Notes: generated by a model not told the origin, from the sequence alone. Shown: positions 12,981 to 63,079, counted from the stretch's first letter. The stretch is DNA of 64,000 nucleotides from a virus (IMGVR_UViG_2739368068_000001:1-64000), one strand, 5' to 3'. Numbers and translations: made by a program.

Positions 12981-13283
12981 CTAGGCGGTGGTCAATGTTT
13001 GGGCTACATGTTGTGTCGTCGGTGTGACAGCGATGGGGACCAGGTCGACGTACACCCGTTCCTCGCGGACGGCCAGGGGGCGGCCGTCGACGAGGTGGCC
13101 GGCGATGCTGGTGTGACCGGTGCTCGATCCGAGGATCGGTGAGACGGCGGTGACCCGGTACCGCTGGGCGGTACCGGTCAACCCGTTCTCGATGATCGGT
13201 GTCTCGCCGATCCGGGGTACGCGGCCGATCTGCGTGCACAGCTCGCCGCCGTCTACCCGATAGATGATCTCTGTCATGTCCAC
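12981..13283 (-). CDS. Hypothetical protein
   Basis: AAAGGA RBS. Last gene of the tra run. Confidence 0.55.
   Translation of the reverse strand: MDMTEIIYRVDGGELCTQIGRVPRIGETPIIENGLTGTAQRYRVTAVSPILGSSTGHTSIAGHLVDGRPLAVREERVYVDLVPIAVTPTTQHVAQTLTTA
12995..13025. promoter_or_regulatory. 31-bp dyad site 1 and minus-strand promoter
   Basis: ATGTTTGGGCTA-CATGTTG-TGTCGTCGGTGT. Minus strand TAGCCC-N17-TAGCCT. Confidence 0.65.
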
Positions 13284-13303
13284 GATGGGTGTCCTTTCCG
13301 GAC

Positions 13304-15598
13304 TTACCGCCAGTGGCGGGGGGTGTAGAGGAGAGCGCCGCGACCGCCGGCGGGGCGGACGAGTTGCCGCGCGTCTACCAGCTTGTTACACCATCCGTAC
13401 GTCGTCGCGCGGTCGGGCATCAGGTCGCGCTGCGCCAGCGCGGCGTTGATGCCGGGCACGTCGATTCCGGCGGGGCCGGCGGCGTCGACGATCTCGACGA
13501 TGGCCGGGGACACCGTCTCGAAGGTGATCGGGCGGCGGACCTCGACAATCGGGACCTGCGGCGCCGGCGGCGTGGTTCCGGTCGCCTCGCCGACGACCTG
13601 GGCGGCCCGGGCGGCGAGTTCCGCGCCGTTGACGTCGACGATCGCTTGGAACGCGGCGTCCGGGTCGACGGCGTCCTGTGCGAACGGGTTGTTTCGGAGG
13701 CGGTCGGTCAGGCCGAGGGTGTCGGCGGTCGTCTGTCGCGCCACGGTGGCCACCGGTGCGGCCGGTGCGGCCGGGGTGGCGGGTCGGTGGACGTACCAGC
13801 GGGTCAGCGGCCGGGCCGGGAGACGGCCGTACATCCACGCGGTGCGGTCGGGGTCGGTCCACCGGTCGCCGTAGCCGAATTGGGCGATCGCGGCGGCGGT
13901 GCCGGCGTCGCAGGTCGGCCGGTATTGGGTGTGCTCCCGCACCGCTTCCAGGATCAGGGCGTCGCGTTCCTCGTGCTTGCCGACGAACCAGATCTTGCCG
14001 GGCTCGCCGTCGCCGTAGCCGAATCCCTCGATGACGACGCTGCCGGGGTACTCCAGGGTGCCGGCCAGCGCGATGACCTCGGAGCTGGAGCCTTGGAGTA
14101 CCTCGCCGGCCTCCGACGTCGACGCGACCGGCAGGATGATCCGGCCGCCGAACTGGGCTTTGGCGTCACCCGACGCGCCTTGGGTGACGGTGCCGCGCTG
14201 GTTAGCGGTCCAGAACCACACTCCCTCGCCGCCGCCGAGGCAGACACCCTGCGTCAGCAGGTTGGAGAGCTGCCCCGAGGTGGGGTCGTGGTCGTTGGAC
14301 AGGGTGCTACCGGCGGCGTTCCCGACGACCTGCGACAGCTCGTCGGCGAAAACGAGGATCGCCGGGTGTTCGGGGGTGGCTCGCCACGACGAGCCGCCGA
14401 GGAGGCCGGGGCGGATCTTCGCGGCGTGGATCGCCGCCATCAGCATCCGCTCGTACTCGGTGCGCTCGATCGCCACCCAGTCGAACAGCGGCTTGGCGAG
14501 CGGCCGGCCGGTGTACGGGTCGGTGACCCGGTCGAGGTAGGGCCGCAGCCAGGATCGGACGGTTCGGCCGCCCTTGCCGTCGTACACCCACAGTAGGACG
14601 TCTTCACAGCGGGAAACCTGGTAGATCAGGACGTCGAGCAGGCTTGACTTGCCCTTACGGGTCTGCCCGACGATCATGGCGTGAATCTCGGCGAGGGTCA
14701 GGTAAATCAGGTCGCCGTCTGCGAATTCGCCAATCGGGAATGCATCGTGGATGGATAGCGGGCTGTGCTCGGCCGGGAGTTTGATCGTGTGCCGCAGAAT
14801 GTCCCGAACGTCGAGACTGATGAATACCTCGGTGGTGATTTCCCGGCCCTCGCGGGTACGGGCCCGCTTCACCCGGACAGCGCCGGGCCGCAGCCCCCGG
14901 CCCTTGACCTCTTGCAGCCGCCGCCCGAACACCACTTCCAGCTTTGCCACGCAACCGCGCACGGTGTCGAACGTCGACGAGCCGTCATCGGGCAGCCGGA
15001 AATGGAGGCTGAAGCCGGCCCGGGTCGGGATCCGGTCGATGAACTCCAGGTTCTTCGCACCGGCGAGCGCCAGCATTCCTTCCCACCGGGCCCGCTCGCG
15101 TTCTTCCTCGGTCGGCTCCGGCTCCGGCTCCGGCTCCGGCTCGGGTTCGGGGTCGGATCCGTACTGGATTTCGTATTCGTGGTCGATCTGCGTCTGGCGG
15201 GTGACCCACCACAGCACGGTGTAGACGCCGAGCAGGATCAGCCAGCACAGCCACGCGACCGGCCCCGACCACAGCCCGTCGACGCCGGTCACGACCGTGG
15301 TCCACACGCCGAGCAGGAACCCACAGGTCACCATGTAGCCGCGCGCCATCGGGCTGTAGAAACGGCCGGCGGTCACCGCGGCGCCGAGCCCGGCCAGCAG
15401 CAGCGTGACGACGGCGCCGACCAGCCAGAGCCAGCCGGCGGCGACGGTCAGCAGGCCGTACCGGCGGGCCTCGTGCGCGGCGACAGCGGCCACGGCGGCG
15501 GATGCCCAGGCGATGACCGGGGGCAGCCACGCGTGGGCCGTCCACGGCCGTCCAAGGACGGTCAGCGGTTCGTACGTGTCGTCGGTGTCGCGGGCCAT
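13304..15598 (-). CDS. traB: TraB-like FtsK/SpoIIIE DNA translocase
   Basis: N-terminal hydrophobic TM segments, Walker A GQTRKGKS, VYDGKGG, Walker B ILVFADE, and a C-terminal winged-helix-like domain. Confidence 0.88.
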   Translation of the reverse strand: MARDTDDTYEPLTVLGRPWTAHAWLPPVIAWASAAVAAVAAHEARRYGLLTVAAGWLWLVGAVVTLLLAGLGAAVTAGRFYSPMARGYMVTCGFLLGVWTTVVTGVDGLWSGPVAWLCWLILLGVYTVLWWVTRQTQIDHEYEIQYGSDPEPEPEPEPEPEPTEEERERARWEGMLALAGAKNLEFIDRIPTRAGFSLHFRLPDDGSSTFDTVRGCVAKLEVVFGRRLQEVKGRGLRPGAVRVKRARTREGREITTEVFISLDVRDILRHTIKLPAEHSPLSIHDAFPIGEFADGDLIYLTLAEIHAMIVGQTRKGKSSLLDVLIYQVSRCEDVLLWVYDGKGGRTVRSWLRPYLDRVTDPYTGRPLAKPLFDWVAIERTEYERMLMAAIHAAKIRPGLLGGSSWRATPEHPAILVFADELSQVVGNAAGSTLSNDHDPTSGQLSNLLTQGVCLGGGEGVWFWTANQRGTVTQGASGDAKAQFGGRIILPVASTSEAGEVLQGSSSEVIALAGTLEYPGSVVIEGFGYGDGEPGKIWFVGKHEERDALILEAVREHTQYRPTCDAGTAAAIAQFGYGDRWTDPDRTAWMYGRLPARPLTRWYVHRPATPAAPAAPVATVARQTTADTLGLTDRLRNNPFAQDAVDPDAAFQAIVDVNGAELAARAAQVVGEATGTTPPAPQVPIVEVRRPITFETVSPAIVEIVDAAGPAGIDVPGINAALAQRDLMPDRATTYGWCNKLVDARQLVRPAGGRGALLYTPRHWR

Positions 15599-15644
15599 GG
15601 CGGGGTGTCCTCCGTCAGCGGGGGGGGTGGCGGGGGTGGTCGGG

Positions 15645-19441: not shown

Positions 19442-19512
19442 GGTGCTTCTCTCCTTCTGGACGTCCAGGGCGCCAGCACGCCCGGGAGTGAGTACACGCT
19501 ACACCGCTGACA

Positions 19513-19543
19513 ATCTTTGGGCTACATGTTGTGTACCAGGCGG
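19513..19543. promoter_or_regulatory. 31-bp dyad site 2 and tra operon promoter
   Basis: ATCTTTGGGCTA-CATGTTG-TGTACCAGGCGG. Minus strand TAGCCC-N17-TAGCGT. Confidence 0.7.
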
Positions 19544-19655
19544 GCCGGGGCGGCGAGCGTGAATGGCCTTTCGGCGTGCCGAGCGAGTCACCCGGTACGG
19601 GCCCGACGGGCCGGATGGCGACCCCGCGCGCCGCCTACTGAGCGTGAGATCGGTC

Positions 19656-19852: not shown

Positions 19853-21328
19853 CTACCGGCGGGCCGCCGCGTGCCCGTCGCGGTCGTCCTGCTCGGCCAG
19901 GCAGCGCGGGCAGGTCACGACGGCACGGTCACTCTCTACCGGCCCGGACGGGACGTGCACCGGCAGTCCGCATGCGGTCACGCCCTCGCCGGGGTGGCGC
20001 GCGTAGTGCGTCGGCTCGCCGCAGTCCGTGTCGGCGCCGTCGCCCTCGATCTGCCGCACGACATCGGCGAACGTCGCGTAACCCCGCTCCGGCACGATCG
20101 GGCCGCCGTGGCGGCGGGTGCCGCGCCAGCCGTAGCCGTCGCACTCGGCGGCCAAGCCGAGGTAGTCGCCGGCGTCGTTGTAGACGCGGATCGTCGCTGC
20201 GGCGCTGCGGCGGCTGTGGCTGAGGCGGTACCGGGTGCAGTTGTCGTCAATGCTCAGGCCCATGGCGCGGGCCAGGATGCGGCCGGCGATCGCGCCGGTC
20301 GGGTCGGACGTGGCGGAGACCTGCGACCAGGTGGGCGCGATGGTGATCGAGTGGCGCCGCTCCCAGCCGCAGCCGCTCCGCTGCTCCGCCTCCCAGGTGT
20401 ACCGGCTGGCTTCGACGTAGATCTCCCCGTCGGACCGGACGGTGATCGAGAAGGCGTAGCGGTTGCCGTTGATCGTCCGAGTCCATGACCGGGTCTGCGC
20501 GTGGCCGCGAAGCTTGAGCCAGGATCCGCCGGCAACGGTGCCCCGGGGCCCGACGGTGAACCGGACGGCCTGTGCCTGCTGGTCGGGGTGGGCCGGGGCG
20601 GCCTGCTCGACGAGCGGGGCGACCGGGGCGGGACGGTTGCGGGGACGCTGCGGGCATGCCTGGCAGAACACGCCGTAGATCGAGCGCTCGACCTTCGCCG
20701 CCGTGAGCTGAGGACTGCCGCCCAGCGGAATCGATCGACGGCACGCCGCGTGCGGGGCGTCGGCCGGACCGGCAACCAGGTGGTACGTCAGGCTGTACGT
20801 CCCCGCCTTGCGGGCGTACATCGCCGGCGCCTGCTCGACCGGGGCGGCCTGCTCGACCGGGGCGGCCTGCTCGACCGGGGCGGCCTGCTCGACCGGGGCG
20901 GCCTGCTCGACCGGGGCGGCCTGCTCGACCGGGGCGGCCTGCTCGACCGGGGCGGCCTGCTCGACCGGGGCGGCCTGCTCGACCGGGGCGGCCTGCTCGA
21001 CCGGGGCGGCCGGGGCCGGCGCCTGGCCGTCAATCTCGGCCAGCGCGGAACGACCCTCGTTGGTGATTCGCACTCGCTGGAAGCAGGGCTCCGTCCCACG
21101 CCGCCCGGCCAGAGGTCGCGCGCACGTCACAGGCTGCCCGTATTCAGCGGTTGCGCACGGCTCACACCGCGCGACCCTTTCCAGCATTCCGGACCGCACG
21201 AGCGCGTCTGCGCTGTGCGGGTGGAAGCCGCCGCCCTGGCCCGCGTGGCCGTTCGCCTCGCCGCCCTTGGCGACTACGAATCGGAGCGTGTTGACCTGTG
21301 CGGGGGACAGCTTGCGGCTGCTCGGCAT
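19853..21328 (-). CDS. Multidomain protein: wHTH-like N-terminus, (VEQAAP)10 linker, Cys-containing domains
   Basis: LSPAQVNTLRF...ADALVRSGML. AGGAGG RBS. Downstream of dyad promoter 3. Confidence 0.65.
   Translation of the reverse strand: MPSSRKLSPAQVNTLRFVVAKGGEANGHAGQGGGFHPHSADALVRSGMLERVARCEPCATAEYGQPVTCARPLAGRRGTEPCFQRVRITNEGRSALAEIDGQAPAPAAPVEQAAPVEQAAPVEQAAPVEQAAPVEQAAPVEQAAPVEQAAPVEQAAPVEQAAPVEQAPAMYARKAGTYSLTYHLVAGPADAPHAACRRSIPLGGSPQLTAAKVERSIYGVFCQACPQRPRNRPAPVAPLVEQAAPAHPDQQAQAVRFTVGPRGTVAGGSWLKLRGHAQTRSWTRTINGNRYAFSITVRSDGEIYVEASRYTWEAEQRSGCGWERRHSITIAPTWSQVSATSDPTGAIAGRILARAMGLSIDDNCTRYRLSHSRRSAAATIRVYNDAGDYLGLAAECDGYGWRGTRRHGGPIVPERGYATFADVVRQIEGDGADTDCGEPTHYARHPGEGVTACGLPVHVPSGPVESDRAVVTCPRCLAEQDDRDGHAAARR
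20829..21008. repeat. Perfect 18-bp tandem repeat, 10 copies
   Basis: GCCTGCTCGACCGGGGCG repeated in frame, no spacers. Confidence 0.95.
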
Positions 21329-21380
21329 CGGTGCCTCCTGTGTCGTCGTTCCGTGGTGTCATCAGACTAGACCGATCACA

Positions 21381-21411
21381 ATCTTTGGTCAACATGATGT
21401 TGCGCAAAGAT
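21381..21411. promoter_or_regulatory. 31-bp dyad site 3 and minus-strand promoter
   Basis: ATCTTTGGTCAA-CATGATG-TTGCGCAAAGAT. Minus strand TTGACC-N17-TAGTCT. Confidence 0.8.
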
Positions 21412-22347: not shown

Positions 22348-22421
22348 AGGGGGTGTCCCTTCTGGTATCGCCCGGGTGCCAGCACACCCGGGCAGGTTGG
22401 AACCAGAGTAGACACCATGCC

Positions 22422-22452
22422 GTAATTGGTCTACATGTTGTTCACTTATCTA
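22422..22452. promoter_or_regulatory. Degenerate dyad site 4 and minus-strand promoter
   Basis: GTAATTGGTCTA-CATGTTG-TTCACTTATCTA. Minus strand TAGACC-N17-TACTCT. Confidence 0.6.
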
Positions 22453-23213
22453 TGTGCGGTGTTCGGTTCGGTCAGGTCGGCGGCGGTGGCCGGATCGGCG
22501 GCGTCGGCGATGCCGGTCAACCAGGGCAGCACCACCGGTGCCCGGATGGTGTGTTCGGCGCCGGCGGCGCGTAGCCGGTAGGCGCGGGCCCGGGCCGCTT
22601 CGGTCGCGTCGAGCGGGGCGAGCAGCTCGACTAGACCTCGCTCGTGTGCCAGGGCGACAGCGCGAACCCGAGTGATGCCGGCGGGCTCGGGTGGGGCGTG
22701 TGCCGGCGGGGCGACCGGGGCGCCTTCCCGGTCGACGGCGGGCACGCTGCGGACGTCCCAGCGACGGCCGAGCCCGGCCATCATCTGATCTGCCATCTTG
22801 AGCGATAGCGAGCCAGCCCGGCCGAACCGGAGCGCCGCGGCGATCGCGCCACGGGTGCGGCCGGTTCGTTCGGCGAGCTTGACGACGCCGATCCCGGCCT
22901 GCTCCATGGCGTACCGAATCTGCATCCGGCATTGATCCTCCAGCGACGGTGTAACCAGGACTGACCGGATGTCGGCGAGCTGGTCGGCGTCGCCGGCCGG
23001 CCGGGGTTGCTCGGCGAGCTGGCGGCCGATGGTGTAGCCGTCGTGCCATGCCTGCATCCCGTCGAGTGGGTACACGCGGCGGTGGCGGGTGGTCTCGACG
23101 ACGTACCCGGATCCGTCGCCGGCCTGCCCGTGGTACCGGTAGGCGCCGGCGTTGTCGTCGGCGGTCAGTGCCCGCACAAGCCGAGTTGCCGGCGGCTCGG
23201 CGGTGCCTGTCAT
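22446..23213 (-). CDS. Protein with a central XRE-type HTH
   Basis: QIRYAMEQAGIGVVKLAERTGRTRGAIAAALRFGRAGSLSLKMADQMMAGLG. Start codon uncertain. Confidence 0.65.
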   Translation of the reverse strand: MTGTAEPPATRLVRALTADDNAGAYRYHGQAGDGSGYVVETTRHRRVYPLDGMQAWHDGYTIGRQLAEQPRPAGDADQLADIRSVLVTPSLEDQCRMQIRYAMEQAGIGVVKLAERTGRTRGAIAAALRFGRAGSLSLKMADQMMAGLGRRWDVRSVPAVDREGAPVAPPAHAPPEPAGITRVRAVALAHERGLVELLAPLDATEAARARAYRLRAAGAEHTIRAPVVLPWLTGIADAADPATAADLTEPNTAHR

Positions 23214-24168: not shown

Positions 24169-25052
24169 GCACTGGGAAGGCGTCGAGGTCGAAGCCGAGG
24201 CGGGCCAGCGCGGCGGACTTCACGTTTCGACAGTCAACACCGGTCTACCGCGACACTCCCCCGGGCCCCGTCGCAGACCCGGCCGCAGACCCGGGCACGG
24301 ACGCCGGCACCGGCACGGACGCCGGCACCGGCACGGACGCCGGCACCGGCACGGACGCCGGCACCGGCACGGGCACCGGCACCGGCCCGGGCACGGACGC
24401 CGGCACCGGCACCGGCACGGGCACGGACGCCGGCACCGGCACGGGCACTGGCACGGACGCCGGCACCGGCACGGGCACTGGCCCGGGCACGGGCACTGGC
24501 ACGGGCACCGGCACCGGCCCGGGCACGGACGCCGGCACCGGCACGGACGCCGGCACCGGCACGGGCACTGGCACGGACGCCGGCACCGGCACGGGCACGG
24601 GCACTGGCACTGGCACGGGCACCGGCACCGGCCCGGGCACGGACGCCGGCACCGGCACCGGCACGGGCACTGGCACGGACGCCGGCACCGGCACGGGCAC
24701 AGGCACGGGCACGGGCACGGGCACGGGCACGGACGCCGGCACCGGCACGGGCACAGGCACGGGCGCGCGCCCGGGCGCGCGCGCGTATACGCGCCCGAGC
24801 CGGCGCGCGCAACGCGGCGCGCAGCCCGGCGACGGCCCGGACCCGGACGTGATCGCGGCTGCCAACCGCGACGTCGACCTAGCCGCACGCGGGTACGCCG
24901 CGATCGCCGGGAAGGTCGCAGAGCGACTCGGCGAGCTGGCCGCCGCCGTGTCGGCAGCGCGAAAAGTCGGCGTTGACGGACGGCAGCTCCACGCCGCGCT
25001 GATCATCGCGGGTGTCGACGACGCGACGATCACGGAGGTGCTCGCCGAGTAG
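24165..25052 (+). CDS. ParA partner (putative centromere-binding protein) with a long Thr-Gly repeat
   Basis: ATGA-coupled to parA. Basic N-terminus, about 160 aa of TG/TDAG repeats, helical C-terminal domain. Confidence 0.6.
24290..24765. repeat. GGCACG/GGCACC hexamer and GGCACGGACGCCGGCACC repeat array
   Basis: Directly visible tandem array. Confidence 0.95.
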
Positions 25053-27841: not shown

Positions 27842-28945
27842 TCAGCCACGACGGCCACCCTCCGGACGCGTCTCGGTCGGCGTCGACCGGCCGGGCGCCT
27901 CGTCGGCGGCGACCACCACGGCGTCGGCCGGCGGCGTCGCCTGGTACGCGGCCGGCGGCGGCCCGTCCGGCTCGGCGCCGGCGCGCGGTTCGACGACGGA
28001 CGACACCCGGGCGGTCGCCGGGTCGAACTTCATCACGTGCGTGAGCAGCCATTCCAGGTCGAATTCCCGGCCGAAACGCTCCGGGGTGACCTCGACGGCC
28101 CGGCCGCCGCCCCGACCGTTCGGGCCCGGCGGCTGGATCCCGCCCCCCACCCGCCGCAGGCCGGTGATCGTCGGGTGGTGGTCGACGGAGAGCCGAACCG
28201 TCGCCGTCGTCGAGTACGGCAACATCCGTTGACACTCGATCTTGTAGATGCGGTTCTTCGTCGGCTGCCCGTTGACCATCTCGACGACGTCCTTTGCCCG
28301 GGCGGTCGCGACGACGACGGCCGGCATCGTGACGCACCGGGTGACCAGCCGTTGATGCCGCTTGTTCGCCGGCGTCCAGTACACGGGGTGCGTGTCGGGC
28401 TCGTCGTTCGGGTCCTGCTCCAGCTTGGCCCGGTTCGCCGGCGCCGACCGGGCCCGGTTCTCGGCCCACTCGGACAGCAGCTCCCAAATCTTCGTCATGG
28501 ACTCGATGATGAACAGGATCGGCTTTTCGCCGGCGTCGATCGCGGCCTGGGCCTGCTCGGCCGCATACTCGACGCATCCCCAGATCTGGTGCCACGTCCC
28601 GTCGTGCGGCAGCACCTCGAAGTCCGGGTTCAGTGCGCCGAACTCGTCGACGTCCTCCCCGACGGCCAGGACCAGCACGCGGGAGAACATCGACGACGCG
28701 GACAGATTGAACACGGCCGTCGACTTGCCGGAGTACTCGCCGCCCTCGACGAGGATGAACGGCCAGCGGGTGCCGCCGAGCGGCTTACGCGGCACCGGCC
28801 GATACTGCGGCAGCGGATCGCGGCGGGCCAGGGCCCGGCGGGCCGGCGTCTCGCCGGCGGGCGGCTCGCTGGCCCCGTGCAGCCAGTCGTCGTCAGCGAC
28901 CGGCCGGGCCTTCGCCGGGGCGGGTGCGGTTGCGGTAGAGGTCAT
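27842..28945 (-). CDS. AAA ATPase, Sak4-like recombination protein
   Basis: ILVEGGEYSGKS, FIIESMTKIW. Adjacent to the exonuclease gene. Confidence 0.75.
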   Translation of the reverse strand: MTSTATAPAPAKARPVADDDWLHGASEPPAGETPARRALARRDPLPQYRPVPRKPLGGTRWPFILVEGGEYSGKSTAVFNLSASSMFSRVLVLAVGEDVDEFGALNPDFEVLPHDGTWHQIWGCVEYAAEQAQAAIDAGEKPILFIIESMTKIWELLSEWAENRARSAPANRAKLEQDPNDEPDTHPVYWTPANKRHQRLVTRCVTMPAVVVATARAKDVVEMVNGQPTKNRIYKIECQRMLPYSTTATVRLSVDHHPTITGLRRVGGGIQPPGPNGRGGGRAVEVTPERFGREFDLEWLLTHVMKFDPATARVSSVVEPRAGAEPDGPPPAAYQATPPADAVVVAADEAPGRSTPTETRPEGGRRG

Positions 28946-28947: not shown

Positions 28948-29952
28948 TCAGTCCTTCGGTGGTTTGCCGAAACGTCGGTGCTTCTGGTCTCCGTAGGGCG
29001 TCCACGCCAGCACGGGCACGCCCTGGTCGGTTGCGGTCACCGCGCCGAGCAGGCCGGCGCGGAACTCGTTTTCAATCAAGTTGATCTCTTCTTGCGGCTC
29101 CTTCGTCAGCTTGTTGATCTCCGAGATTCGGGCCTTCAACTCGGCCCGGCGGGCGGCGAGCTTCGCCGACCCGGGAATCTCGGCCGTCTTCGCGAGCTGG
29201 CCGGCCGGCCGGCTCGAAGCCTTGAGCGCCTTCGTGGTGGCGTCGGACGCGTCGACGTCCGGCGGCATCCCTTCGGCGACGTGCCACCACCACCAGCGGG
29301 CCGCCCGGGTGACGATCCACGACAGCCGCGCCTCATGGCGGTCGACCCGCCACCAGCGAAGCCCGTCAGTGCAGCCGTCGGCGACGACGTACCAGTGCGG
29401 GCAGCCGGTCACGGCCATGCACCATTCGGCTTGGACGACGGCGTGCACGGCCGGCCCGTACTTCCAGTGCTCGCCCCAGTCGTCGGGGTCGGGCGCTTTG
29501 AACTCGACGCCGCCGCCGTCGCTGGTGAACCGGTCCGGGTTGCAGCGCATCCAACCCGGCACCGTTGAGTCGGTCACCGGGTCGTACTCGGGTACCGCCC
29601 ACGTACCTGTCTTGCGCAGTGCAAGGCCGGTTTCGTCGGCGAACCACTGCGCGAGCATCAGCTCTGCGTACCGGCCCCGGGTCATCATCGGCGTCTCGTC
29701 GACCGGCGGCCGGGCGCCCGTCTTGGTCAGCCACAACCCGTACTCCGTCTCCCAGTTGACGAGTCCGAGGATCGCCGCGATGTCCGACCCGCCGATCCCG
29801 TCGAGCCGGGCATCCCGCCACCGGTCATACATCGTTCGGGCCGCGTCGGCCGGCAGGATCTCCACCGCGTCGACCGGCACAGGCCAGCCACCGTCAGCGA
29901 CGGTCGCCAGCGCAGCCGGTGACGGGGTATGGTGTCCGGTCAAGAGGTTCAT
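28948..29952 (-). CDS. YqaJ-like (lambda exonuclease family) viral recombinase nuclease
   Basis: WRDARLDGIGGSDIAAILG, MTRGRYAE, MRCNPDR, VEFKA, VVQAEWCMAVTG. Confidence 0.88.
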   Translation of the reverse strand: MNLLTGHHTPSPAALATVADGGWPVPVDAVEILPADAARTMYDRWRDARLDGIGGSDIAAILGLVNWETEYGLWLTKTGARPPVDETPMMTRGRYAELMLAQWFADETGLALRKTGTWAVPEYDPVTDSTVPGWMRCNPDRFTSDGGGVEFKAPDPDDWGEHWKYGPAVHAVVQAEWCMAVTGCPHWYVVADGCTDGLRWWRVDRHEARLSWIVTRAARWWWWHVAEGMPPDVDASDATTKALKASSRPAGQLAKTAEIPGSAKLAARRAELKARISEINKLTKEPQEEINLIENEFRAGLLGAVTATDQGVPVLAWTPYGDQKHRRFGKPPKD

Positions 29953-30100
29953 TGACGTGACTCTCCGCGCTCGTCGTGGGTGTCCTGTCGGTGTTTCCTT
30001 CTGGTAGATGCGCCTCCGGTCCAAGGCACGCACCCTTCGCGGGTGCAGACGTCCAGCAACGTCGCCGCGGATACCGGGGGCGTGTCGTTTCTCAGACCGC

Positions 30101-30610
30101 CTATCCCGCGTCCGTGTCGGCCGGCTTCGGCATACGCGGGCCGAGCTTGCCCGGGCCGGGCTTCGGCCGGCCGCCGGGCGTGGGAAAGAAATCCTCGTCG
30201 GTGCGACCCCACCGGGCGAGCCAGCGGCGGACGTCACCGGCGCGATAGAGCGGCTGGTCGGACCCGCGACCGCCGGTGTCACCGGGCCGCTTGACGTCGG
30301 CGGTCGCCTCGTTCGCCGGCGGGATCATCGTCATGGGGCCCTGAGGCTGGCCGTTGAGGTAGTTGTTTCGGAGCCGGTTGTACGCGGCCCGGGACGGGTA
30401 GCCGCCAGCCTTGATGACCTTCGCTGCGCTCCACAGCGCGTCGTCGCCGGCGAGCCGGTCGCGGCGGAGCTGGCGCGACCGTTCCGGCAGGGCGGCGACG
30501 GCTACACGGGACATGTCCGCGAGCTGCGCAAGCGACGCCTGCTGGATCCGGTCGTGCACCTCCTCCGTGCTCATGTCGCCGATCTGATCGGCGGTCAGCG
30601 TGGCTGTCAC
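30101..30610 (-). CDS. AlpA/Xis-like DNA-binding protein
   Basis: LWSAAKVIKAGG...PLYRAGDVRRWLARWGR. GGAGGA RBS. First gene after dyad promoter 6. Confidence 0.55.
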   Translation of the reverse strand: MTATLTADQIGDMSTEEVHDRIQQASLAQLADMSRVAVAALPERSRQLRRDRLAGDDALWSAAKVIKAGGYPSRAAYNRLRNNYLNGQPQGPMTMIPPANEATADVKRPGDTGGRGSDQPLYRAGDVRRWLARWGRTDEDFFPTPGGRPKPGPGKLGPRMPKPADTDAG

Positions 30611-30674
30611 TGGTCTACTCCTCCGGTTGTTGACGGGTGATGCCGTCGGATGCGTTCACGGTAGGCAGACCACA

Positions 30675-30705
30675 AACTTTAGTCAACATGTTGTTGCGCA
30701 TGTGT
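30675..30705. promoter_or_regulatory. 31-bp dyad site 6 and minus-strand promoter
   Basis: AACTTTAGTCAA-CATGTTG-TTGCGCATGTGT. Minus strand TTGACT-N17-TACCGT. Confidence 0.75.
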
Positions 30706-31724: not shown

Positions 31725-31794
31725 CGGTCCTCCTGGCTGTCGCGGCCCAGCAGCCACGACGATTGATCGGAAAGTCCACGCTACCCCTACCCAA

Positions 31795-31825
31795 ATCTTT
31801 GGGCAACATGTTGTTGCTTGTTCCG
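31795..31825. promoter_or_regulatory. 31-bp dyad site 7 and minus-strand promoter
   Basis: ATCTTTGGGCAA-CATGTTG-TTGCTTGTTCCG. Minus strand TTGCCC-N17-TAGCGT. Confidence 0.75.
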
Positions 31826-31964: not shown

Positions 31965-32663
31965 CTACTCTCGGCAGCAGGTAAGGCAGCAGTCGACGTC
32001 GCCGGACCCTCCGCACCGGTCGCCACCGGTCGGCAACGCCACCTCTGCGCACCGGTTGTACGGCCGGTGCCCGCACTCGGCCGGCTCCGGCAGCCCGCAA
32101 AACCTGTGCCGGGCCGGGTCCGGGCACGGCTGGCCGATCATCCCCTGCCCGTACGTGTAGCACTCCGCGCACACGTCCAGGTGGCCGAGCCGGCCCGTCG
32201 ACGTCACCACGGCGATTACACCACCGCAGACGCAACGGGCGTCGGCGTCGTCGCCCAGGCCGAGCCCGGCGAGCCGCATGTGGATGGCAAGCAACCGCTG
32301 TCCCTCGCCCCGCTCGACGATCGGGCCCCACGCCGCCGCGTACGCGGCGGTCCGGAACCGGGCCAGCAGCCCGCCGGCCGTCTGCCGCCGCGCGTCGTCG
32401 AGGCGGCCGGTCAGCATGGTCTGACCGGTCGGGATCAGCTCGATCGTCCACGTGGTGCCGTCGTCATCGTTGCGGACGTAGCGCCACAACCCGTCGGCGC
32501 TGGTCGCCTCCCAGACCTCCGGCCGGGTGACGCCGCCGGGGTCGGTGACCGGCCGGACGTACGTGGGGCGGTTGGTGGTGGTCCCGAGCGGTGTCAACGG
32601 TCCCAGCGGGCGAGGTGCAGGCAGCCGGGCGCCGCGCGGCAGCACGGTGTACGTGGTCGTCAC
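31965..32663 (-). CDS. Hypothetical protein with a Cys/His-rich C-terminus
   Basis: CVCGG, HLDVCAEC, HRFC, CGH and CCLTCC motifs. CAGGAGGA RBS. Confidence 0.6.
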   Translation of the reverse strand: MTTTYTVLPRGARLPAPRPLGPLTPLGTTTNRPTYVRPVTDPGGVTRPEVWEATSADGLWRYVRNDDDGTTWTIELIPTGQTMLTGRLDDARRQTAGGLLARFRTAAYAAAWGPIVERGEGQRLLAIHMRLAGLGLGDDADARCVCGGVIAVVTSTGRLGHLDVCAECYTYGQGMIGQPCPDPARHRFCGLPEPAECGHRPYNRCAEVALPTGGDRCGGSGDVDCCLTCCRE

Positions 32664-32725
32664 GGTGGTTTCCTCCTGGTCTGTCGGGCCCAGCAGCCCG
32701 ACGTGATCAACCTAACCCGCCCCAA

Positions 32726-32756
32726 ATCTTTACGCAACATGTTGTTGATTAAACCC
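32726..32756. promoter_or_regulatory. 31-bp dyad site 8 with divergent promoters
   Basis: ATCTTTACGCAA-CATGTTG-TTGATTAAACCC. Minus strand TTGCGT-N17-TAGGTT, plus strand TTGATT-N17-TAGCGT. Confidence 0.8.
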
Positions 32757-32796
32757 ATGCCTCGGGTTAGCGTGATGGCATCTGTTCCCGCAGAGA

Positions 32797-33819
32797 GTGA
32801 GGCAACCCTTGACCGAAACGATCATTGGCGGTGTGCGCGCGTACGGCGACGAGGCGCCACGCCCCGAGCGGTGGGCGGCAGTCATCACGATGCCTGTCGA
32901 TCCGGATCCGACCGTGCCCGCGCTGGTGCGCCGCGTCGGCCCGTACAGCAACAGCGTCACCGCGCACAACGCCTGTTACCGGCTCGCCTGGCTGGCCGGC
33001 ACCGCCGCGCCGGCCGGGACGACCATCGAACTCGCCTTGTACGACCCGACGCAGCCGCACCTGTCGCCCCGGCCGGCGCTGGCTACCGAGGAACTCGCCG
33101 AGGAACTGCGCCGAGAGCCGGCATCGGATGGCTTCTACAACTTCCCGTCCCTGTATCACCGGCTGCTGCTCACCCACGGGGAGTCGGCCGCCGAGGAGGC
33201 GTGGCGGGCGGTGCGCAGCTACGTCAGCGCCGAGGAGGAGGCGGCGGCGGAACGGCGGAAAAAGGCCGACAGCGAAGCGGTGCGGCTCGCCCCGTACCGG
33301 GCCGAGATCGCCCGGGCGGCGGCGGCCCGCCGTACGCTGGTCGCCGCGCCGATCCTCAACGCCGCCGCCGCCATGTTCGCCGACCTGCTCGACGTCTCCG
33401 ACCGGCACGGCGCGGCCCGGGACCTCTGGCCGCGCGTGGCGAATCTGCCGATGGCCTGCCTCATGCTGGCCGAAGACGCGATCGTGGGCGGCAGCGGCCC
33501 GGACGGCGCCGACCCGGCGGCGATCCGGCTGGTAACCGAGGTGGTCGAGAGGTGCCACGCACGGGGTATCCGGGTCCGGTGGAGCGGCTCCAGCGCGTTG
33601 ATCGCCCGGCCGGGTGGTGGGCATCAGCCCGGCCCGACCGGGCCCCTGGCGCTCGCGCTCGGTACGCGAGGCTGGCGGTTGAGCCTGCACGAGTCGTCGG
33701 CGGAGCCGGCCGCGATCCTGGCGACGTACGACGAGGCGGGCGCCGCCGCCGTCGTCGACGTCCTGGCGGCCCTGCTCGCCGGAGAGGTCCCCGACCCGTT
33801 CGGCGGCCGACTCGGCTGA
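32797..33819 (+). CDS. Hypothetical protein
   Basis: Lies between dyad promoter 8 and a terminator. The start may be the TTG a few codons in. Confidence 0.6.
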   Translation: MRQPLTETIIGGVRAYGDEAPRPERWAAVITMPVDPDPTVPALVRRVGPYSNSVTAHNACYRLAWLAGTAAPAGTTIELALYDPTQPHLSPRPALATEELAEELRREPASDGFYNFPSLYHRLLLTHGESAAEEAWRAVRSYVSAEEEAAAERRKKADSEAVRLAPYRAEIARAAAARRTLVAAPILNAAAAMFADLLDVSDRHGAARDLWPRVANLPMACLMLAEDAIVGGSGPDGADPAAIRLVTEVVERCHARGIRVRWSGSSALIARPGGGHQPGPTGPLALALGTRGWRLSLHESSAEPAAILATYDEAGAAAVVDVLAALLAGEVPDPFGGRLG

Positions 33820-33864: not shown

Positions 33865-33895
33865 ATCTTTGGGCAACATGTTGTTGACTAAAGAT
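33865..33895. promoter_or_regulatory. 31-bp dyad site 9 and plus-strand promoter
   Basis: ATCTTTGGGCAA-CATGTTG-TTGACTAAAGAT. Plus strand TTGACT-N17-TAGTCT. Confidence 0.85.
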
Positions 33896-33961
33896 GCTGT
33901 GAAGGTTAGTCTGATCTCGTTCGGGGCGACGCTGGCGCCCCAACGGACCAGGGGAGACGCC

Positions 33962-34318
33962 ATGAAGGTTGAAATGAGCGAAGCGCAGTACGACGCGATG
34001 ACGGCGGTACTCAACCGCCGGGGTAACACCGTGATCCGGTACACCGACGCGACCGTCTCCACCATGCTCGCCATGAAGCGGCGCAACTGGGTCGACCTCG
34101 TGTGGATCACGACGGACGGAAAGCGCCGGATCCTCTCGGCCAAGGTCCGCCCGCAGGGCCTCGCCGCCTACGACCGCGAGACCGTGCGCCGCGAGGCCGA
34201 GGAGAAGCGCCGGGCCCGTCTGGCGGCGGTGCTGGCCACGACCGGCAAGCCGTCGCTGACCGCGCAGGTCGACGCGTTCTCGCTGGTCAAGACGCGCGAA
34301 CTCGCAATCCCGTTCTGA
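33962..34318 (+). CDS. Small wHTH-like early protein
   Basis: MSEAQYDAMTAV...TVSTMLAMKRRNWVDL. AGGGGAG RBS. Confidence 0.6.
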   Translation: MKVEMSEAQYDAMTAVLNRRGNTVIRYTDATVSTMLAMKRRNWVDLVWITTDGKRRILSAKVRPQGLAAYDRETVRREAEEKRRARLAAVLATTGKPSLTAQVDAFSLVKTRELAIPF

Positions 34319-34983: not shown

Positions 34984-35014
34984 AACTTTGGTACACAACA
35001 TGTTGCCTAAAGAT
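34984..35014. promoter_or_regulatory. 31-bp dyad site 10 (inverted spacer) and plus-strand promoter
   Basis: AACTTTGGTACA-CAACATG-TTGCCTAAAGAT. Plus strand TTGCCT-N17-TAGGCT. Confidence 0.8.
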
Positions 35015-35069
35015 GGGTTGGCGGTTAGGCTCAATACAACACCACGGACACGAGCAAGGGAGCAGCGAC

Positions 35070-35294
35070 ATGCAGGCGATGCAGGCGAACATCTTCGGCG
35101 AGCTGACCGACGTCACCCCGGCCGCCCGGCCGGCGAAGCCCGTCAAGCCGGCCCGGCCCGCCGCCGAACCGCTGACCCTGTTCGCGCTCGAAGGCGACCA
35201 GTTCGCCGGCCAGACCGTCGCACTCGGCCACGGCTGGGATATGGCGATCGCCGCCCCCGGAACCGAGGTCCGCAGCAACGTCACCGCCATCTGA
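35070..35294 (+). CDS. Small hypothetical protein
   Basis: AAGGGAG RBS. Confidence 0.6.
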   Translation: MQAMQANIFGELTDVTPAARPAKPVKPARPAAEPLTLFALEGDQFAGQTVALGHGWDMAIAAPGTEVRSNVTAI

Positions 35295-53789: not shown

Positions 53790-53797
53790 GGTCGGGA

Positions 53798-54703
53798 TCA
53801 GGAACCGAGCGGGCCCCGGATCAGTACGGCGCGGTTCGCGTCGAGCGTCTTGCAGCCGTACAGCACGTCGATCGACACGACATCCTGCTTCTTGTCCATG
53901 TCGTACCCGTAGATCACCCGCAGGCCGTACCCCTTGTAGGACGCGATCGCGGCGTTCGACGCGCCACGCGGCAGCGCCAGGGGCCGCACCGCGAGCGCGA
54001 ACGCGGTCCGGTGGAACGCCACCCCGACCTCGGTGGTCGGAATCCCCGTGCCCGGCGTCGGGATCGTGATGTTATTCGTCTCGTACGGGTCGAACCCGTA
54101 CAGGCGACGGCCGAGCGACGCCTCTTGCAACCCCTGGGTGTCGCCCCGGGCGTCGGCCCGGCTGAGCAGGTCATTCTTGAGCCACTCCGCGGCCATCGTG
54201 GGGCCGACGACGGCGTACCGCTGCGACGGCGGAACGGACTGCTTCGTCAGTTCCCGGCCGGCGGCGACCATCGCCCGGGGGTCGTTCCACAACTCGCCGG
54301 AGGTGGTGCCGACGGTCGTCACGATGTCGGACCGCAGCGCCAGCAGGTCGCGATCGATCTTCTGCGAGATCGCTTCCATCGCCGGCGCGAGAAGCCGCTC
54401 AGAAAAGTCGGTGATCTTGAGCGTGAGATCTTCCGACGTCACCGCGAAAGAAACGTCGGCGAAGTGGTTGAGCGTCATCGGGATACCGGACTCGGTCGCG
54501 TCCTGGACCGTGATTCCGGCCGCCCGGTTGTACTCGTGCGCGACGAACCTCGCCGGCTTCCGGATCGTGATCGTGTCACCGACCGCGCCCGCAAAGGTGT
54601 CTTCGTAGTCGCGGTGCACGAGCGACGCCATGATGGTCGTCTCGTACAGGTTCGCCAGCGCAGCCTGAGCGATGACGTCAGGCGTGAGCAGGGTGTTTGC
54701 CAT
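53798..54703 (-). CDS. Major capsid protein (P22 coat-like family)
   Basis: MANTLLTPDVIA...RDYEDTF...GDTITIRKP...SIDVLYGCKTL. Confidence 0.9.
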   Translation of the reverse strand: MANTLLTPDVIAQAALANLYETTIMASLVHRDYEDTFAGAVGDTITIRKPARFVAHEYNRAAGITVQDATESGIPMTLNHFADVSFAVTSEDLTLKITDFSERLLAPAMEAISQKIDRDLLALRSDIVTTVGTTSGELWNDPRAMVAAGRELTKQSVPPSQRYAVVGPTMAAEWLKNDLLSRADARGDTQGLQEASLGRRLYGFDPYETNNITIPTPGTGIPTTEVGVAFHRTAFALAVRPLALPRGASNAAIASYKGYGLRVIYGYDMDKKQDVVSIDVLYGCKTLDANRAVLIRGPLGS

Positions 54704-54723
54704 GGTTGATTGCTCCTGGGCGG

Positions 54724-58493: not shown

Positions 58494-58499
58494 CGCCCG

Positions 58500-59870: not shown

Positions 59871-59905
59871 CGCCGGCCTCCTCGTGCTGTTGTCGGCGCA
59901 CGCGG

Positions 59906-59940
59906 AACAGCCGCCCCGCGCGGTGCGGGACGGCTGTTCG
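59906..59940. terminator. Hairpin within the head operon
   Basis: GAACAGCCG...CGGCTGTTC stem. Confidence 0.55.
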
Positions 59941-59957
59941 TGTGGTGGTACGGGCGC

Positions 59958-60239
59958 CTAGTGGACGACGGCCGCCCCGGCGGCGACCGGTGGTACCGGG
60001 ACCGGCGGCGGGGTGCCGGTCACGGTCAGCGGGCCGGGGATCAGGTGCCGGCCGGCGAGGTACAGCCACGTCTGGTCGTTGCTGCCCGTCGCGTCGTACT
60101 GCGGGCCGAGCGGTGTCATCGGTGCGGGGACCTGGTCGACGAGCCAGCCGGTAACCTCGGCGCCGGTCGTGGTGTCGGCATCCCACCGGCCGCCCCGGAA
60201 ATCGAGCCAACGACCGTCGCTGCCCTCAATTCGCCACAT
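59958..60239 (-). CDS. Small protein downstream of the peptidase-domain gene (immunity candidate)
   Basis: 93 aa. Overlaps the stop of protein A. Confidence 0.55.
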   Translation of the reverse strand: MWRIEGSDGRWLDFRGGRWDADTTTGAEVTGWLVDQVPAPMTPLGPQYDATGSNDQTWLYLAGRHLIPGPLTVTGTPPPVPVPPVAAGAAVVH

Positions 60240-61872
60240 GAGACGAATTGTATCCGAGTGTGAGTAGAGCGCCGATAACAAACTGCTGCAAATCATCGGA
60301 TCGGTCGAAATCGCGACGACGTGACCAGAGATCTTGCATGCCTACCTGGAATAGCTCCCACGGCACGTCGGCCGGATGGTCGGGTTTCCACCGTTCGTAC
60401 GTCTTACCTGCGTACGCGTTTGCCCATGTGTCCCTGAACCCGACTTCACGGTCTCCACTGTAAATCGGCGTCTGTCGTTCCAGTGTGACGCCGTCAGGGG
60501 CGGTCGACCTGCGACGAACCATTGTGAATTCAAGGTGCGTCAGACCAGGAATCGTCGCTTCCATCCGGTGCCCGAGTTCGTGCACGGTCACATCCCGCGC
60601 GTACCCGTCCGCGCCGGCGCCGTGCGCGCCGGCGTACCAACCGCCGACCCCCTGCGCCGGTACCCCCATCGTGTCGATCCCGGCGGAGTAGAACGCCCGT
60701 TCGGAGGCCACCAACCGCAACGGCCGCCGCGCGGCGGCCTGTAGCCACTCCGACGGGTAGAACTGTTCGGCGTCGGCCAGCGTGACCAGCGCGGTGACAC
60801 GTGCCCCGGTAGTCGGGACTCCGTCGACGTCCGTGATCCGCGACGCCTCTTCGTCCGTGGCCAGGGTTGCGCGGTGCCCCGGCCCGCCGAACGTCCGCGC
60901 AGACCCGAGCAACGCGGCCAAAATCTCCTGTTCCCGGCGTAGCGGAGCGAGTTTCGCTGCCTTCCACCGCTGGTGAGCGGCCGTCACATCAGGATGATCG
61001 GCCGGCAGCGTCTCCGACAGCCGCGACCAGGTGGCCCACGACTCCTCGTCGGCACGGCGGAGTCGCTGCCACTCAGGGTCGTTGTGCCATACCTTCCGCG
61101 CTTCGTCGAGGACCAGGCGGCCGACGTCGAGGACCGCATCGAGGTGCCGCTCATACTCTTCTGGCGGCAGCCGCACCGACAGTCCCGACGCGTCGTCACG
61201 ACCGGTCCGGTAGTGGTAGCTGGTCCGGTCGGCGGCCCGTTCCTCCTCCGTCCGCAGATAGTTACGGTTGTTCCTCAACGCCTCTTCGAGCGCTTCTATC
61301 CGCTGCTCGTACGGGCCGACCGACTGGGCAAACCAGCGTTCCCGGTCGGCCTTGCGAAGCCGCTGCCCCCGCCACTCGGCCTTGAACGCGGCGGCGGCCT
61401 GATCCCGGCGGGCCCGCTCGGCCGCGATCGCCGTCTCCAGCTCGGCGATCGCGGCGCGCAGCTCGGCGGCCCGCGCGACCGCCCGCCGGTCGACCCGCAG
61501 CGGCGCATCCCATTCGCCGCTAGTCTTCGGCAGGCCGGCCCGGACGCGGGCGATCGTTTCCCGCACCCCGTCCGGCAGCGTCGGCGCTTCCGGCGTCGTC
61601 GACCGGCTGACGGTCACCGAGGGTGCCCGGCGAAGCGCCTGCCGCCGCTCGGTCAGGGTGCCGCCGCCGGGCGGTAGCCCGTCGTCCCGGCGGACTCGCC
61701 ACCGCCGGCGGGTACCGGTTCCGATCGCGATGATCTGTACGTCCGCCATGCGGCGGAGCCGGCCGGACAGGTGTCGAATGCCGTGCATGGTGCCCTTGCA
61801 CTGGCAGTGACACACCCCGCCATCGGCGTTGGCGCACTCCTCGCTGTGCGGTCCGGCATCGGCCACGTCCAC
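60226..61872 (-). CDS. Head-region protein A: Cys/His header and a C-terminal zincin-like (HExxH) domain
   Basis: HSEECANADGGVCHCQCKGTMHGI. VTVHELGHRME...YAGKTY...WELFQVG. Confidence 0.75.
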   Translation of the reverse strand: MDVADAGPHSEECANADGGVCHCQCKGTMHGIRHLSGRLRRMADVQIIAIGTGTRRRWRVRRDDGLPPGGGTLTERRQALRRAPSVTVSRSTTPEAPTLPDGVRETIARVRAGLPKTSGEWDAPLRVDRRAVARAAELRAAIAELETAIAAERARRDQAAAAFKAEWRGQRLRKADRERWFAQSVGPYEQRIEALEEALRNNRNYLRTEEERAADRTSYHYRTGRDDASGLSVRLPPEEYERHLDAVLDVGRLVLDEARKVWHNDPEWQRLRRADEESWATWSRLSETLPADHPDVTAAHQRWKAAKLAPLRREQEILAALLGSARTFGGPGHRATLATDEEASRITDVDGVPTTGARVTALVTLADAEQFYPSEWLQAAARRPLRLVASERAFYSAGIDTMGVPAQGVGGWYAGAHGAGADGYARDVTVHELGHRMEATIPGLTHLEFTMVRRRSTAPDGVTLERQTPIYSGDREVGFRDTWANAYAGKTYERWKPDHPADVPWELFQVGMQDLWSRRRDFDRSDDLQQFVIGALLTLGYNSSHVAN

Positions 61873-61881
61873 CGCCCCCTG

Positions 61882-63039
61882 TCATGATCGGCTCGCCGGG
61901 ACGGCGGCCGGTGGAATGTGTCCGGCGCCGATCTCCTCTCGGTACCGGAGCCGGGTCAACTGGTGCTCGTCGACGTGCCGCACGATCGCGGCCGTCCACT
62001 CGGCGACCCGGGCCGCCGCCGCCCGCCGGCCCTGCTCGGTCAGCGCCGAGACTTCGCGCTCCCGCCAGTGCCGTATGTGGCGCTCGATCTCTCGCTGCCG
62101 GGTCCGGGCCGCCTCGCCGGCCGGGTCCGCGGTCCGGCCGGTCCGGAGCAGGATCGACACCCCGGGCAGGTAGCGGCGGATCGTGTGCCGGCATCGCGGG
62201 TGCAGCAGCCCAGCGGCGGTCGCCTCGTCGAGCGTGGCCACGACGTTGACGGGCACCAGGGCGCCGGTACGGGCGTGCGGTGCCATCTGCTGGCCGGTGG
62301 GGCCCCACAGCGCGAGAATCCGATGCTCGTAGGGGCGGCAGCGCCAGCATTCGCCGGGCTGGTCGTCGACGGACACGAGCCGGATCCCGGCGGCGGTGAT
62401 CTCGTCGGCCTGGCCAAGCACGGTCGCGCGGTGTACGGCGGTCTGCGCGGCCATCTCGACGTACGTGTGGAGGCGCCAGCGGCGGCCGGCGGTGTCGGTG
62501 TAGCCGGTGACGCCCCGGTCGACCAGCTCGGCCCATGCGGCCTGGGCGGCCTCGCGTTGGGTGGTGGCGCCGGTCAGCCTGCGGGCCGCCGCGTTGGTGA
62601 TCGCCCGCCGGTACGCGGTGTCGACCTGCGGCAGGATCGCCGCGTGCAGCGGCCGGAGTTCGCTGACCATGGCGTCGGCAAGGGCTTGGATTGCTTGCGC
62701 GGCGCGGCGTTCGGCCTGCCCGGCGGGGCGGGGCGCGGTGCGGTCGGTGAGGTGCTCGGCGAGGTCCGCGACGGCGTCAGCGCGGCCGGCGCGGTAGCCG
62801 GCGGCGATCGCTGCCCGGGCCCGGGCGGCGCCGGCGGCGGCGAGCTGCGCGGCGATCGCCGTGGTGGCGCGGTGTAGCGCGCCGATGCTTTCCAGTCGGC
62901 GGGCCTGCCAGTCGGTGCGGTCGAGTCCGACAGCGAGTCGGGCCCGGATCGTTTGCAGGAGCGCCGTTTCACCTTCGCGGTAGACGTGGGCGACGGCGGC
63001 GGCGAGCTGGTCGACGCGGCGTGGGTCGACCGCCACCAC
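61882..63039 (-). CDS. Phage minor capsid protein (MuF-like)
   Basis: GYTDTAGRRWRLHTYVEMA, ECWRCRPYE, GLLHPRCRH and QREIERHIRHW. No C-terminal extension. Confidence 0.88.
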   Translation of the reverse strand: MVAVDPRRVDQLAAAVAHVYREGETALLQTIRARLAVGLDRTDWQARRLESIGALHRATTAIAAQLAAAGAARARAAIAAGYRAGRADAVADLAEHLTDRTAPRPAGQAERRAAQAIQALADAMVSELRPLHAAILPQVDTAYRRAITNAAARRLTGATTQREAAQAAWAELVDRGVTGYTDTAGRRWRLHTYVEMAAQTAVHRATVLGQADEITAAGIRLVSVDDQPGECWRCRPYEHRILALWGPTGQQMAPHARTGALVPVNVVATLDEATAAGLLHPRCRHTIRRYLPGVSILLRTGRTADPAGEAARTRQREIERHIRHWREREVSALTEQGRRAAAARVAEWTAAIVRHVDEHQLTRLRYREEIGAGHIPPAAVPASRS

Positions 63040-63048
63040 AACCCCCTA

Positions 63049-63079
63049 AACTTTGGTAAACATGATGTTGACTAAAGAT
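63049..63079. promoter_or_regulatory. 31-bp dyad site 11 and plus-strand moron promoter
   Basis: AACTTTGGTAAA-CATGATG-TTGACTAAAGAT. Plus strand TTGACT-N17-TAGTTT. Confidence 0.85.

Follow-up and report, generated by a model that had tools for sequence, protein, structure and literature searches.

Known operator families

The C1 repressor of phage P1 controls operators at a dozen or more scattered positions, many of which overlap promoters of otherwise unrelated early genes, and in the Streptomyces phage phiC31 inverted-repeat sites lie in a family of near-identical early promoters. The 31-bp sites considered here are dispersed over the virus record IMGVR_UViG_2739368068_000001 (G000; 83,115 bp), an uncultured 83-kb actinobacterial phage-plasmid of an undescribed lineage, of which bases 1-64000 are the stretch analyzed (the window). 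They resemble the P1 and phiC31 sites in layout, with unrelated sequences; the P1 operators are, in addition, asymmetric. The sites constitute a real, well-defined promoter-operator family of a familiar type, a commonplace phage control circuit and not a means of shuffling genes.

In the Cluster A mycobacteriophages, such as L5 and Bxb1, operator and stoperator sites form regulons in which the consensus of each phage group tracks the repressor (PMC6550527; PMC9283540). G000 resembles these phages in that a single short site, aligned with the direction of transcription, recurs many times along a temperate actinophage genome, some copies falling inside early promoters, and in that its consensus is particular to its phage group; Cluster A also includes extrachromosomal members that carry parA. 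Cluster A sites are asymmetric 13-bp sequences that bind a monomeric repressor, lie mostly outside promoters, and block elongation, whereas those of G000 are 31-bp palindromes, with every copy fused to a -35 box, and its repressor is represented by candidates. A further comparison is offered by the GntR-type TraR/KorA repressors and tre boxes of Streptomyces conjugative plasmids, in which purified TraR of pSVH1 binds 14-bp repeats, TTTGGTACACAACT (PMC4447253); there, as in G000, a GntR/HutC regulator stands beside a transfer operon of the FtsK/TraB type.

Architecture of the predicted promoters and operators

A first-pass annotation of the window described ten 31-bp sites, all of which are present at the positions and with the sequences it gave (Table 1; each site is named by its first base). 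With up to three mismatches allowed, the full consensus matches three sites against 0.00 expected, and the 13-bp core CAACATGWTGTTG matches six against 0.02 expected. Every promoter-oriented site combines a -35-like hexamer, a 17-bp spacer, and a TAnnnT element; with 32726 being bidirectional, this gives the 11 promoters that had been proposed. Written in promoter orientation, the sites read ACAACATGTTG(A/C)CYAAAGAT, 11 bp, TAGnnTG, with a -35 box, the 17-bp spacer, and a -10 box of actinobacterial type in all 11 window promoters. A 38-column position weight matrix (PWM) scores the family promoters at 42-61 bits, compared with a maximum of 7.3 bits in 20 shuffles, and identifies members beyond the window at 73268(+) (38 bits) and 64178(+) (21.5 bits), along with a doubtful one at 64980(+); the same scan finds the structural operon, from ~35.1 to 63 kb, free of family sites. 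Many copies of one site, far above chance and lying over promoter elements, are what an immunity-type regulon presents.

As in promoters for a housekeeping sigma factor, a 17-bp spacer and a TA(G/C)nnT element are found in all 11 window promoters and at 73268, with -35 hexamers that range from TTGACY to TAGCCC across the family; a ribosome site and start codon follow 30-60 nt downstream of each predicted promoter. An E. coli-tuned promoter scan detected no family member, because that scan demands 4/6 matches to TATAAT. The sites are probably a family of at least 12-13 promoters of the HrdB/sigma-70 type (TTGACY, 17 bp, TAGnnT), a prediction from sequence that forms part of the operator-regulon reading discussed below.

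The layout had been described as two 12-bp arms around an asymmetric 7-bp spacer; it is better read as one imperfect 31-bp palindrome with the central element CAACATGTTG, the spacer itself being largely palindromic (CAACAT-G-ATGTTG at 21381, and near-palindromic at 63049 and 73268). Mirrored positions are complementary in 13 of 15 pairs at 21381 and in 12 of 15 at 33865. The reported inversion of the spacer at 34984 holds when sites are compared by strand; promoter direction explains the orientations equally well, with 33865 as the exception, and either scheme leaves one independent exception. Arm variants do recur among the sites: TTGCGCA at 21381 and 30675, TTGACTAAAGAT at 33865 and 63049, and TGTACCA at 19513 and 34984.

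The promoter-proximal arm, consisting of the -35 box and AAAGAT, is present at all sites. The promoter-distal arm is kept only at 21381, 32726, 33865, 34984, and 63049 and, outside the window, at 73268; the sites at 12995, 19513, 22422, 30675, and 31795 have the proximal arm and centre only. Counted by promoter, two-fold symmetry extends over the full palindrome in six of 12 and over a half site plus centre in the other six. The CTTT of the distal arm lies at the exact mirror position in 6/12 promoters, where there is no -10 box, and the chance of this is ~1e-3 per site as estimated from base composition; its retention therefore points to selection on the palindrome as such in about half of the sites. 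AAAGAT, just 3' of the -35 box, is likewise conserved, although sigma-70 promoters have no need for it.

Conservation in related phages

The closest relative compared as a whole genome, the 95.9-kb G003 (portal 57% identical), is syntenic with G000, and at least 12 of its promoters share the architecture and correspond in position: before the homologs of 30101, 31965, and 33962; as a divergent pair at the position of 32726; between the minor capsid and portal genes; and before the transfer-like operon. Both phages share a core of ACATGTT, 0-3 bases, and TTGAC. The arm that reads AAAGAT in G000 is GATTTAAC in G003, where GATTTA(A/C)C replaces AAAGAT throughout and the distal arm is an AT-rich mirror of GATTTA(A/C)C. 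As in immunity-type systems, the sequence of the site differs between the two phages while its positions are kept; such coordinated change, with the positions fixed, is characteristic of a regulator and operator specific to the phage.

Shared genes and promoters have the same order and orientation in G000 and G003. Behind three syntenic promoters, 32737(+), 34995(+), and that of the head insertion, 63060(+), the genes of G000 have no homolog in G003, which indicates that promoter-headed cassettes have been replaced as units; in the head operon, the insertion in G003 is another one and likewise follows a family promoter belonging to that phage. This replacement of genes needs no more than homologous exchange between conserved heads, and there is no pointer to site-specific recombination.

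The more distant relatives G006 and Hiyaa have families of their own. The phage G006 has about 20 copies of TGTTGACAT...GTGTTTACT, together with a conserved leader and with no obvious dyad. The 92.8-kb contig G280, which encodes a homolog of the winged-helix protein described below, contains just three related promoters and lacks a large family. In five related virus records the G000 motif does not occur. When viral, genome, and metagenome collections were scanned for exact matches to CAACATGTTGNCNAAAGAT, no other element with several copies was returned, and the motif is therefore specific to this phage; the matches were single, mostly due to chance, and in AT-richer DNA, with the exception of a full dyad in Plantactinospora endophytica. 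A Hamadaea match from the pattern scan is not a dyad and was rejected.

The Plantactinospora endophytica copy is one complete 31-bp dyad, ATCTTTAGTCAACATGTTGTGTACTAAAGAC, in a low-GC chromosomal island (NZ_BONW01000019.1; L013:4766-4796), ~290 bp upstream of a gene for a 501-amino-acid (aa) protein without a Pfam domain. Neither a portal homolog of the G000 group nor a related prophage was detected in that genome.

Streptomyces phage Hiyaa has a promoter-like family of its own, with at least 13 copies of ACTTGCGC-N7-GCAAG-N4-GTG(A/G)TTTAATTGAATTA between 57 and 80 kb; these repeats sit between small genes, and a GC-rich hairpin follows each. Literature searches returned no paper that deals with these repeats or with Hiyaa-like phages.

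Candidate regulators

The best candidates for the binder are the winged-helix protein 33962-34318 and the XRE-fold protein 22446-23213, both of which are common to G003 and have DNA-binding folds in their structural models. In G000 it is the most perfect palindrome that precedes the winged-helix gene, and in G003 the homolog follows a top-scoring site. Among the Foldseek matches listed for the model of the G000 protein nearly all are PadR/MarR-type regulators, at weak E-values of ~0.01, and comparison with the ESM Atlas gives template modelling (TM) scores of 0.56-0.63 to PadR/MarR-type and related winged-helix regulators. In an alignment of the winged-helix family, a linker of low confidence is followed by a conserved tail at the C-terminus, DPFA...(E/D)(I/L)PF, which resembles a short motif for docking to a partner protein.

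The model of the XRE-fold protein matches HipB, ClgR, and C.Esp1396I over ~64 residues, with target-normalised TM scores of 0.55-0.78 and a root-mean-square deviation of ~2 A. This protein is 44% identical to its G003 counterpart; its gene is divergent from the adjoining parA and has no family promoter ahead of it in G000. Searches of PDB sequences with three candidate regulators gave no matches. The proteins 33899, 19853, and 64290 were also considered as paralogous winged-helix proteins and rejected, as BLASTP detects no mutual similarity among them.

Probable control by a shared operator

Of the two interpretations offered by the first-pass annotation, that of one operator shared by transfer, recombination, single-gene, and moron units fits the sites, which are embedded in promoters, palindromic, and changing in concert in the syntenic G003; that of integron-like shuffling is unsupported. 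It is reasonably probable that the early and accessory units share a palindromic operator, particular to this phage, which spans the -35 box, extends upstream of it, and is bound by a phage-encoded regulator. We infer that the sites fire as promoters and are repressed in the following way: a dimeric phage-encoded DNA-binding protein on the palindrome would occlude the -35 region, binding tightly at full palindromes and more weakly at half sites. The transfer-like and recombination units, the single-gene cassettes, the head-region moron, and the integrase operon would be silent together in the plasmid-prophage state and released together.

Several observations weigh against a shared repressor site. 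ACATGTT followed by TTGAC is common to G000, G003, and G006 and may be part of the promoter instead of an operator. Five of the ten window sites have no distal arm, and a dimer would have only a half site there. Both candidate binders are tied to the sites by co-occurrence and position, with weak Foldseek E-values (~0.01) for both models, and the lone dyad in Plantactinospora endophytica, where no related prophage was detected, leaves room for a host factor. The centre of the palindrome, ~4 bp 5' of the -35 hexamer and thus at about -40, is also typical of class II activators.

This last point bears on an unlikely alternative, in which a phage- or host-encoded dimer at ~-40 recruits RNA polymerase and switches the units on together. 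Poor -35 hexamers (TAGCCC at 12995 and 19513, TAGACC at 22422, TTGCGT at 32726) are in keeping with activation, and the position of the winged-helix gene behind the best site would also suit a positive feedback loop. Four sites, however, have a near-consensus TTGACY and a good -10 element and would probably fire unaided, and the conserved arm reaches downstream of the -35 box into the spacer; a protein bound there would stand in the way of sigma region 4 and hence act as a repressor.

The GntR/UTRA protein encoded at 8837-9580 is a further possible binder for the whole family; it would be a kill-override repressor of the TraR/KorA type, with a regulon that grew outward from the transfer operon to take in the other units. 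It adjoins an FtsK/TraB-type transfer operon and is 31-35% identical to GntR proteins whose genes adjoin traA/traB on small Streptomyces plasmids; all arms start with a related TTTGG or TTTAG motif; and the pSVH1 TraR box recurs almost exactly in the distal arm of 34984 (TTTGGTACACAAC, 13/14) and partly as a half site on the distal side of 19513 (GTTGTGTACCA, 11/14). Other matches to the box are at chance level, and the family as a whole lacks it. The gene has a separate, perfect 14-bp palindrome 60 bp upstream, CTGGTACGTACCAG at 8761-8774, which is probably its own operator, and G003 has the syntenic, homologous promoter family yet no GntR domain was found there. A family-wide role for GntR is accordingly quite unlikely; its own palindrome and the GntR-free family of G003 instead suggest that the transfer operon is what it probably represses, in the manner of TraR/Kor, and that it more likely provides 19513, perhaps also 34984, with an additional layer of control. 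Both of these dyads have half sites related to CTGGTACGTACCAG, (C/T)TGGTAC, in their distal parts.

It is decidedly unlikely that the family has no dedicated trans-acting factor and consists of copies of one strong promoter module, duplicated and kept alike by gene conversion, with palindromy as the relic of a bidirectional ancestor like 32726. Either arm can serve as a -35 box, as both do at 32726, the leader hairpin and ribosome site are repeated as well, and G006 combines its ~20 promoter-plus-leader copies with no obvious dyad. Between the conserved blocks, in the spacer and the leader stems, the copies nevertheless differ, which indicates that likeness is maintained block by block through selection and not by recent copying. 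The retention of non-promoter distal arms also argues against simple copies, as does the hexamer 3' of the -35 box, which has no known promoter role, does not vary within a phage, and differs from one phage to another.

A host transcription factor, probably from a member of the Micromonosporaceae, could in principle bind the palindrome and tune the phage promoters to a host signal, as the complete dyad in a Plantactinospora endophytica chromosome without the group's portal homolog might suggest; that dyad is, however, a single copy in a 9.7-Mb genome, in an island that appears acquired, and the motif differs in each related phage, which phage-encoded specificity fits better, and a host factor is very unlikely.

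Least credible, and very unlikely, is the proposal that the sites are tyrosine-recombinase cores at which cassettes are excised, inverted, or captured in an integron-like way: the 12-7-12 layout does resemble such cores, the centre CATGTTG is identical in most sites, the record encodes a tyrosine recombinase behind a family promoter (recognized by its domain match) as well as a degenerate Cre-like protein, and genes behind three syntenic promoters differ between phages, but one arm is missing at half of the sites, the centre is palindromic or nearly so in three where recombinase overlap regions are asymmetric, ten active directly repeated sites would delete essential phage regions, the motif evolves in concert with strict promoter spacing as expected of transcription signals, and the conserved gene order in G003 refutes shuffling on the terms in which the first-pass annotation proposed it.

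A hairpin in the transcript leader

The putative operator would be one layer of a repeated cassette head made up of an upstream terminator hairpin, the operator/promoter, a leader hairpin with CUGG in its loop, and a ACCAGGAGG-type ribosome site, which lies downstream of the leader hairpins. Directly 3' of the predicted start, six of 12 G000 leaders can form a hairpin with a stem of 5-10 bp that differs from copy to copy and a UGCUGG loop (ACGCUGG in one copy). The same kind of hairpin is found in 7/12 leaders of G003, with a loop that is mostly CUGGAA, and in 17/21 leaders of G006, with the loop (G)CUGGAG; across these three related phages the stems are variable and compensating and the CUGG of the loop is invariant. 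Because the G000 loop and the CUGGAA and CUGGAG loops of the other two shift the stem registers, a count of pairs on one alignment was dropped in favour of a test against the background rate: hairpins of this type occur in ~3% of background 56-nt windows, and the G000 leaders are ~17-fold enriched (P ~6e-7). The hairpin is kept across relatives whose portals are only 43-57% identical to that of G000; its conservation is deeper than that of the operator.

Short hairpins with a conserved loop and a variable stem also occur just downstream of the early promoters of phage lambda, as nut/boxB. The G000 hairpin may be compared with these in function only, its units likewise being separated by terminators; unlike boxB, it has an unrelated CUGG loop and lies at the extreme 5' end of the transcript, a position from which it might do no more than stabilize the mRNA. 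No Rfam family matches the leader hairpin, and it is the piece of the system for which no described counterpart was found and the most original by-product of the analysis. As speculation, it may stabilize the mRNA 5' end, or an RNA-binding factor, for instance an antiterminator, may recognize it. A broader conjecture, tentative and rather unlikely, is that the cassette head (terminator, phage-specific operator/promoter, invariant-CUGG hairpin, and ribosome site) is a plug-in expression platform of a widespread group of 80-100-kb actinobacterial phage-plasmids, with new genes swapped in behind the heads, as at the three syntenic positions where G000 and G003 differ, and the hairpin acting as a nut/boxB-like target of a hypothetical factor for read-through of the terminators between cassettes.

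The phage and its genes

Homologs of the G000 portal (45-63% identity) are found on many 80-100-kb contigs and plasmids of Nonomuraea, Streptosporangium, Micromonospora, and Microtetraspora, which places G000 in a large group of actinobacterial phage-plasmids, and also in the Streptomyces phages Hiyaa, Spocter, Keanu, and Galactica; the portal relatives P0002-P0005 (62-63% identical) are closer than G003. The host is probably a member of the Micromonosporaceae. The G+C content of G000 is 71.6%. Megablast of 48 kb of the window against a phage collection gave no matches, and Pfam and PHROGs return nothing for most early proteins.

The promoter at 73268(+) heads a 14-gene operon whose last genes encode the small XRE-like protein and the integrase. 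The Cre-like gene has a weak N-terminal SAM-like Pfam match only. A minus-strand open reading frame by parA, 24245-25033, encodes a long (PV)n/PASV repeat; it may be no gene but an artefact produced by GC-rich, iteron-like DNA repeated in tandem.

Table 1. Predicted promoter-operator sites, leader hairpins, and genes of the G000 record. Promoter spans are followed by PWM scores; pLDDT, predicted local distance difference test.
Feature	Coordinates	Strand	Remarks
Half-dyad promoter (12995)	12978..13025	minus	47 bits; -10 TAGCCT at 12978-12983, -35-like TAGCCC; heads operon 12913 to 10009, which includes a DUF6283 gene
Half-dyad promoter (19513)	19496..19543	minus	55 bits; heads transfer-like operon (511-aa and 769-aa proteins, then FtsK/TraB-like 13304-15598)
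Full-palindrome promoter (21381)	21364..21411	minus	61 bits; heads 491-aa gene 19853-21328
Weakest window promoter (22422)	22405..22452	minus	43 bits; TAGACC-17-TACTCT; overlaps stop codon of XRE-fold gene; heads two small membrane-like genes, 22347 to 21465
Half-dyad promoter (30675)	30658..30705	minus	55 bits; heads recombination operon (169-aa gene, YqaJ exonuclease, 367-aa gene 27842-28945 with weak AAA_24 match); syntenic with G003 site 6998
Half-dyad promoter (31795)	31778..31825	minus	56 bits; heads small genes 31724 to 30752
Bidirectional site (32726)	32709..32773	both	55 and 42 bits; both arms are -35 boxes; minus -10 at 32709-32714, heads Cys-rich gene 31965-32663; plus -10 at 32768-32773, heads gene 32833-33819; syntenic with divergent G003 pair 12151/12225
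Best palindrome (33865)	33865..33912	plus	54 bits; 0 mismatches to first-pass consensus; directly 3' of perfect hairpin terminator; heads winged-helix gene; syntenic with G003 site 13476
Full-palindrome promoter (34984)	34984..35031	plus	52 bits; heads 74-aa gene 35070-35294
Full-palindrome promoter (63049)	63049..63096	plus	57 bits; between minor capsid and portal genes; heads two-gene plus-strand insertion (63146 to record 64922; DUF6884 protein, then 210-aa protein) in minus-strand head operon; syntenic with G003 site 43098
5' leader hairpin	33919-33945	plus	GGGGCG-ACGCUGG-CGCCCC
Leader hairpins	19463-19488, 22369-22394, 31737-31762, 32680-32705	minus	UGCUGG loop
Leader hairpin	63102-63127	plus	UGCUGG loop
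Winged-helix candidate regulator	33962-34318	plus	118 aa; long C-terminal helix; model pLDDT 88.5
XRE-fold candidate regulator	22446-23213	minus	255 aa; central XRE-type helix-turn-helix; model pLDDT 75
ParA ATPase gene			near XRE-fold gene
GntR/UTRA (HutC-type) regulator	8837-9580	plus	beside transfer module
Cre-like gene	6632-7681		described as degenerate
FtsK/TraB-like translocase	13304-15598
YqaJ exonuclease	28948-30282
P22-type coat protein	53798-54703
Minor capsid protein 2	61882-63039	minus
SPP1-type portal	65047-66672 of record
Small XRE-like gene	77688-78011 of record		overlaps start of integrase gene
Tyrosine integrase, bona fide	78008-79048 of record		Pfam Phage_integrase, E 1e-28
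ECF sigma factor			encoded by the record

Significance

The sites chart where early and accessory units of transcription lie in this uncultured phage-plasmid, for which the master regulator has been narrowed to two candidate proteins. In high-GC actinomycetes, the modules of promoter, operator, and hairpin could find use as expression parts that are orthogonal and regulated together. G000 and G003 together are a clean natural example of an operator that has changed in concert at a dozen syntenic promoters, and concerted operator change is how new immunity specificities arise.

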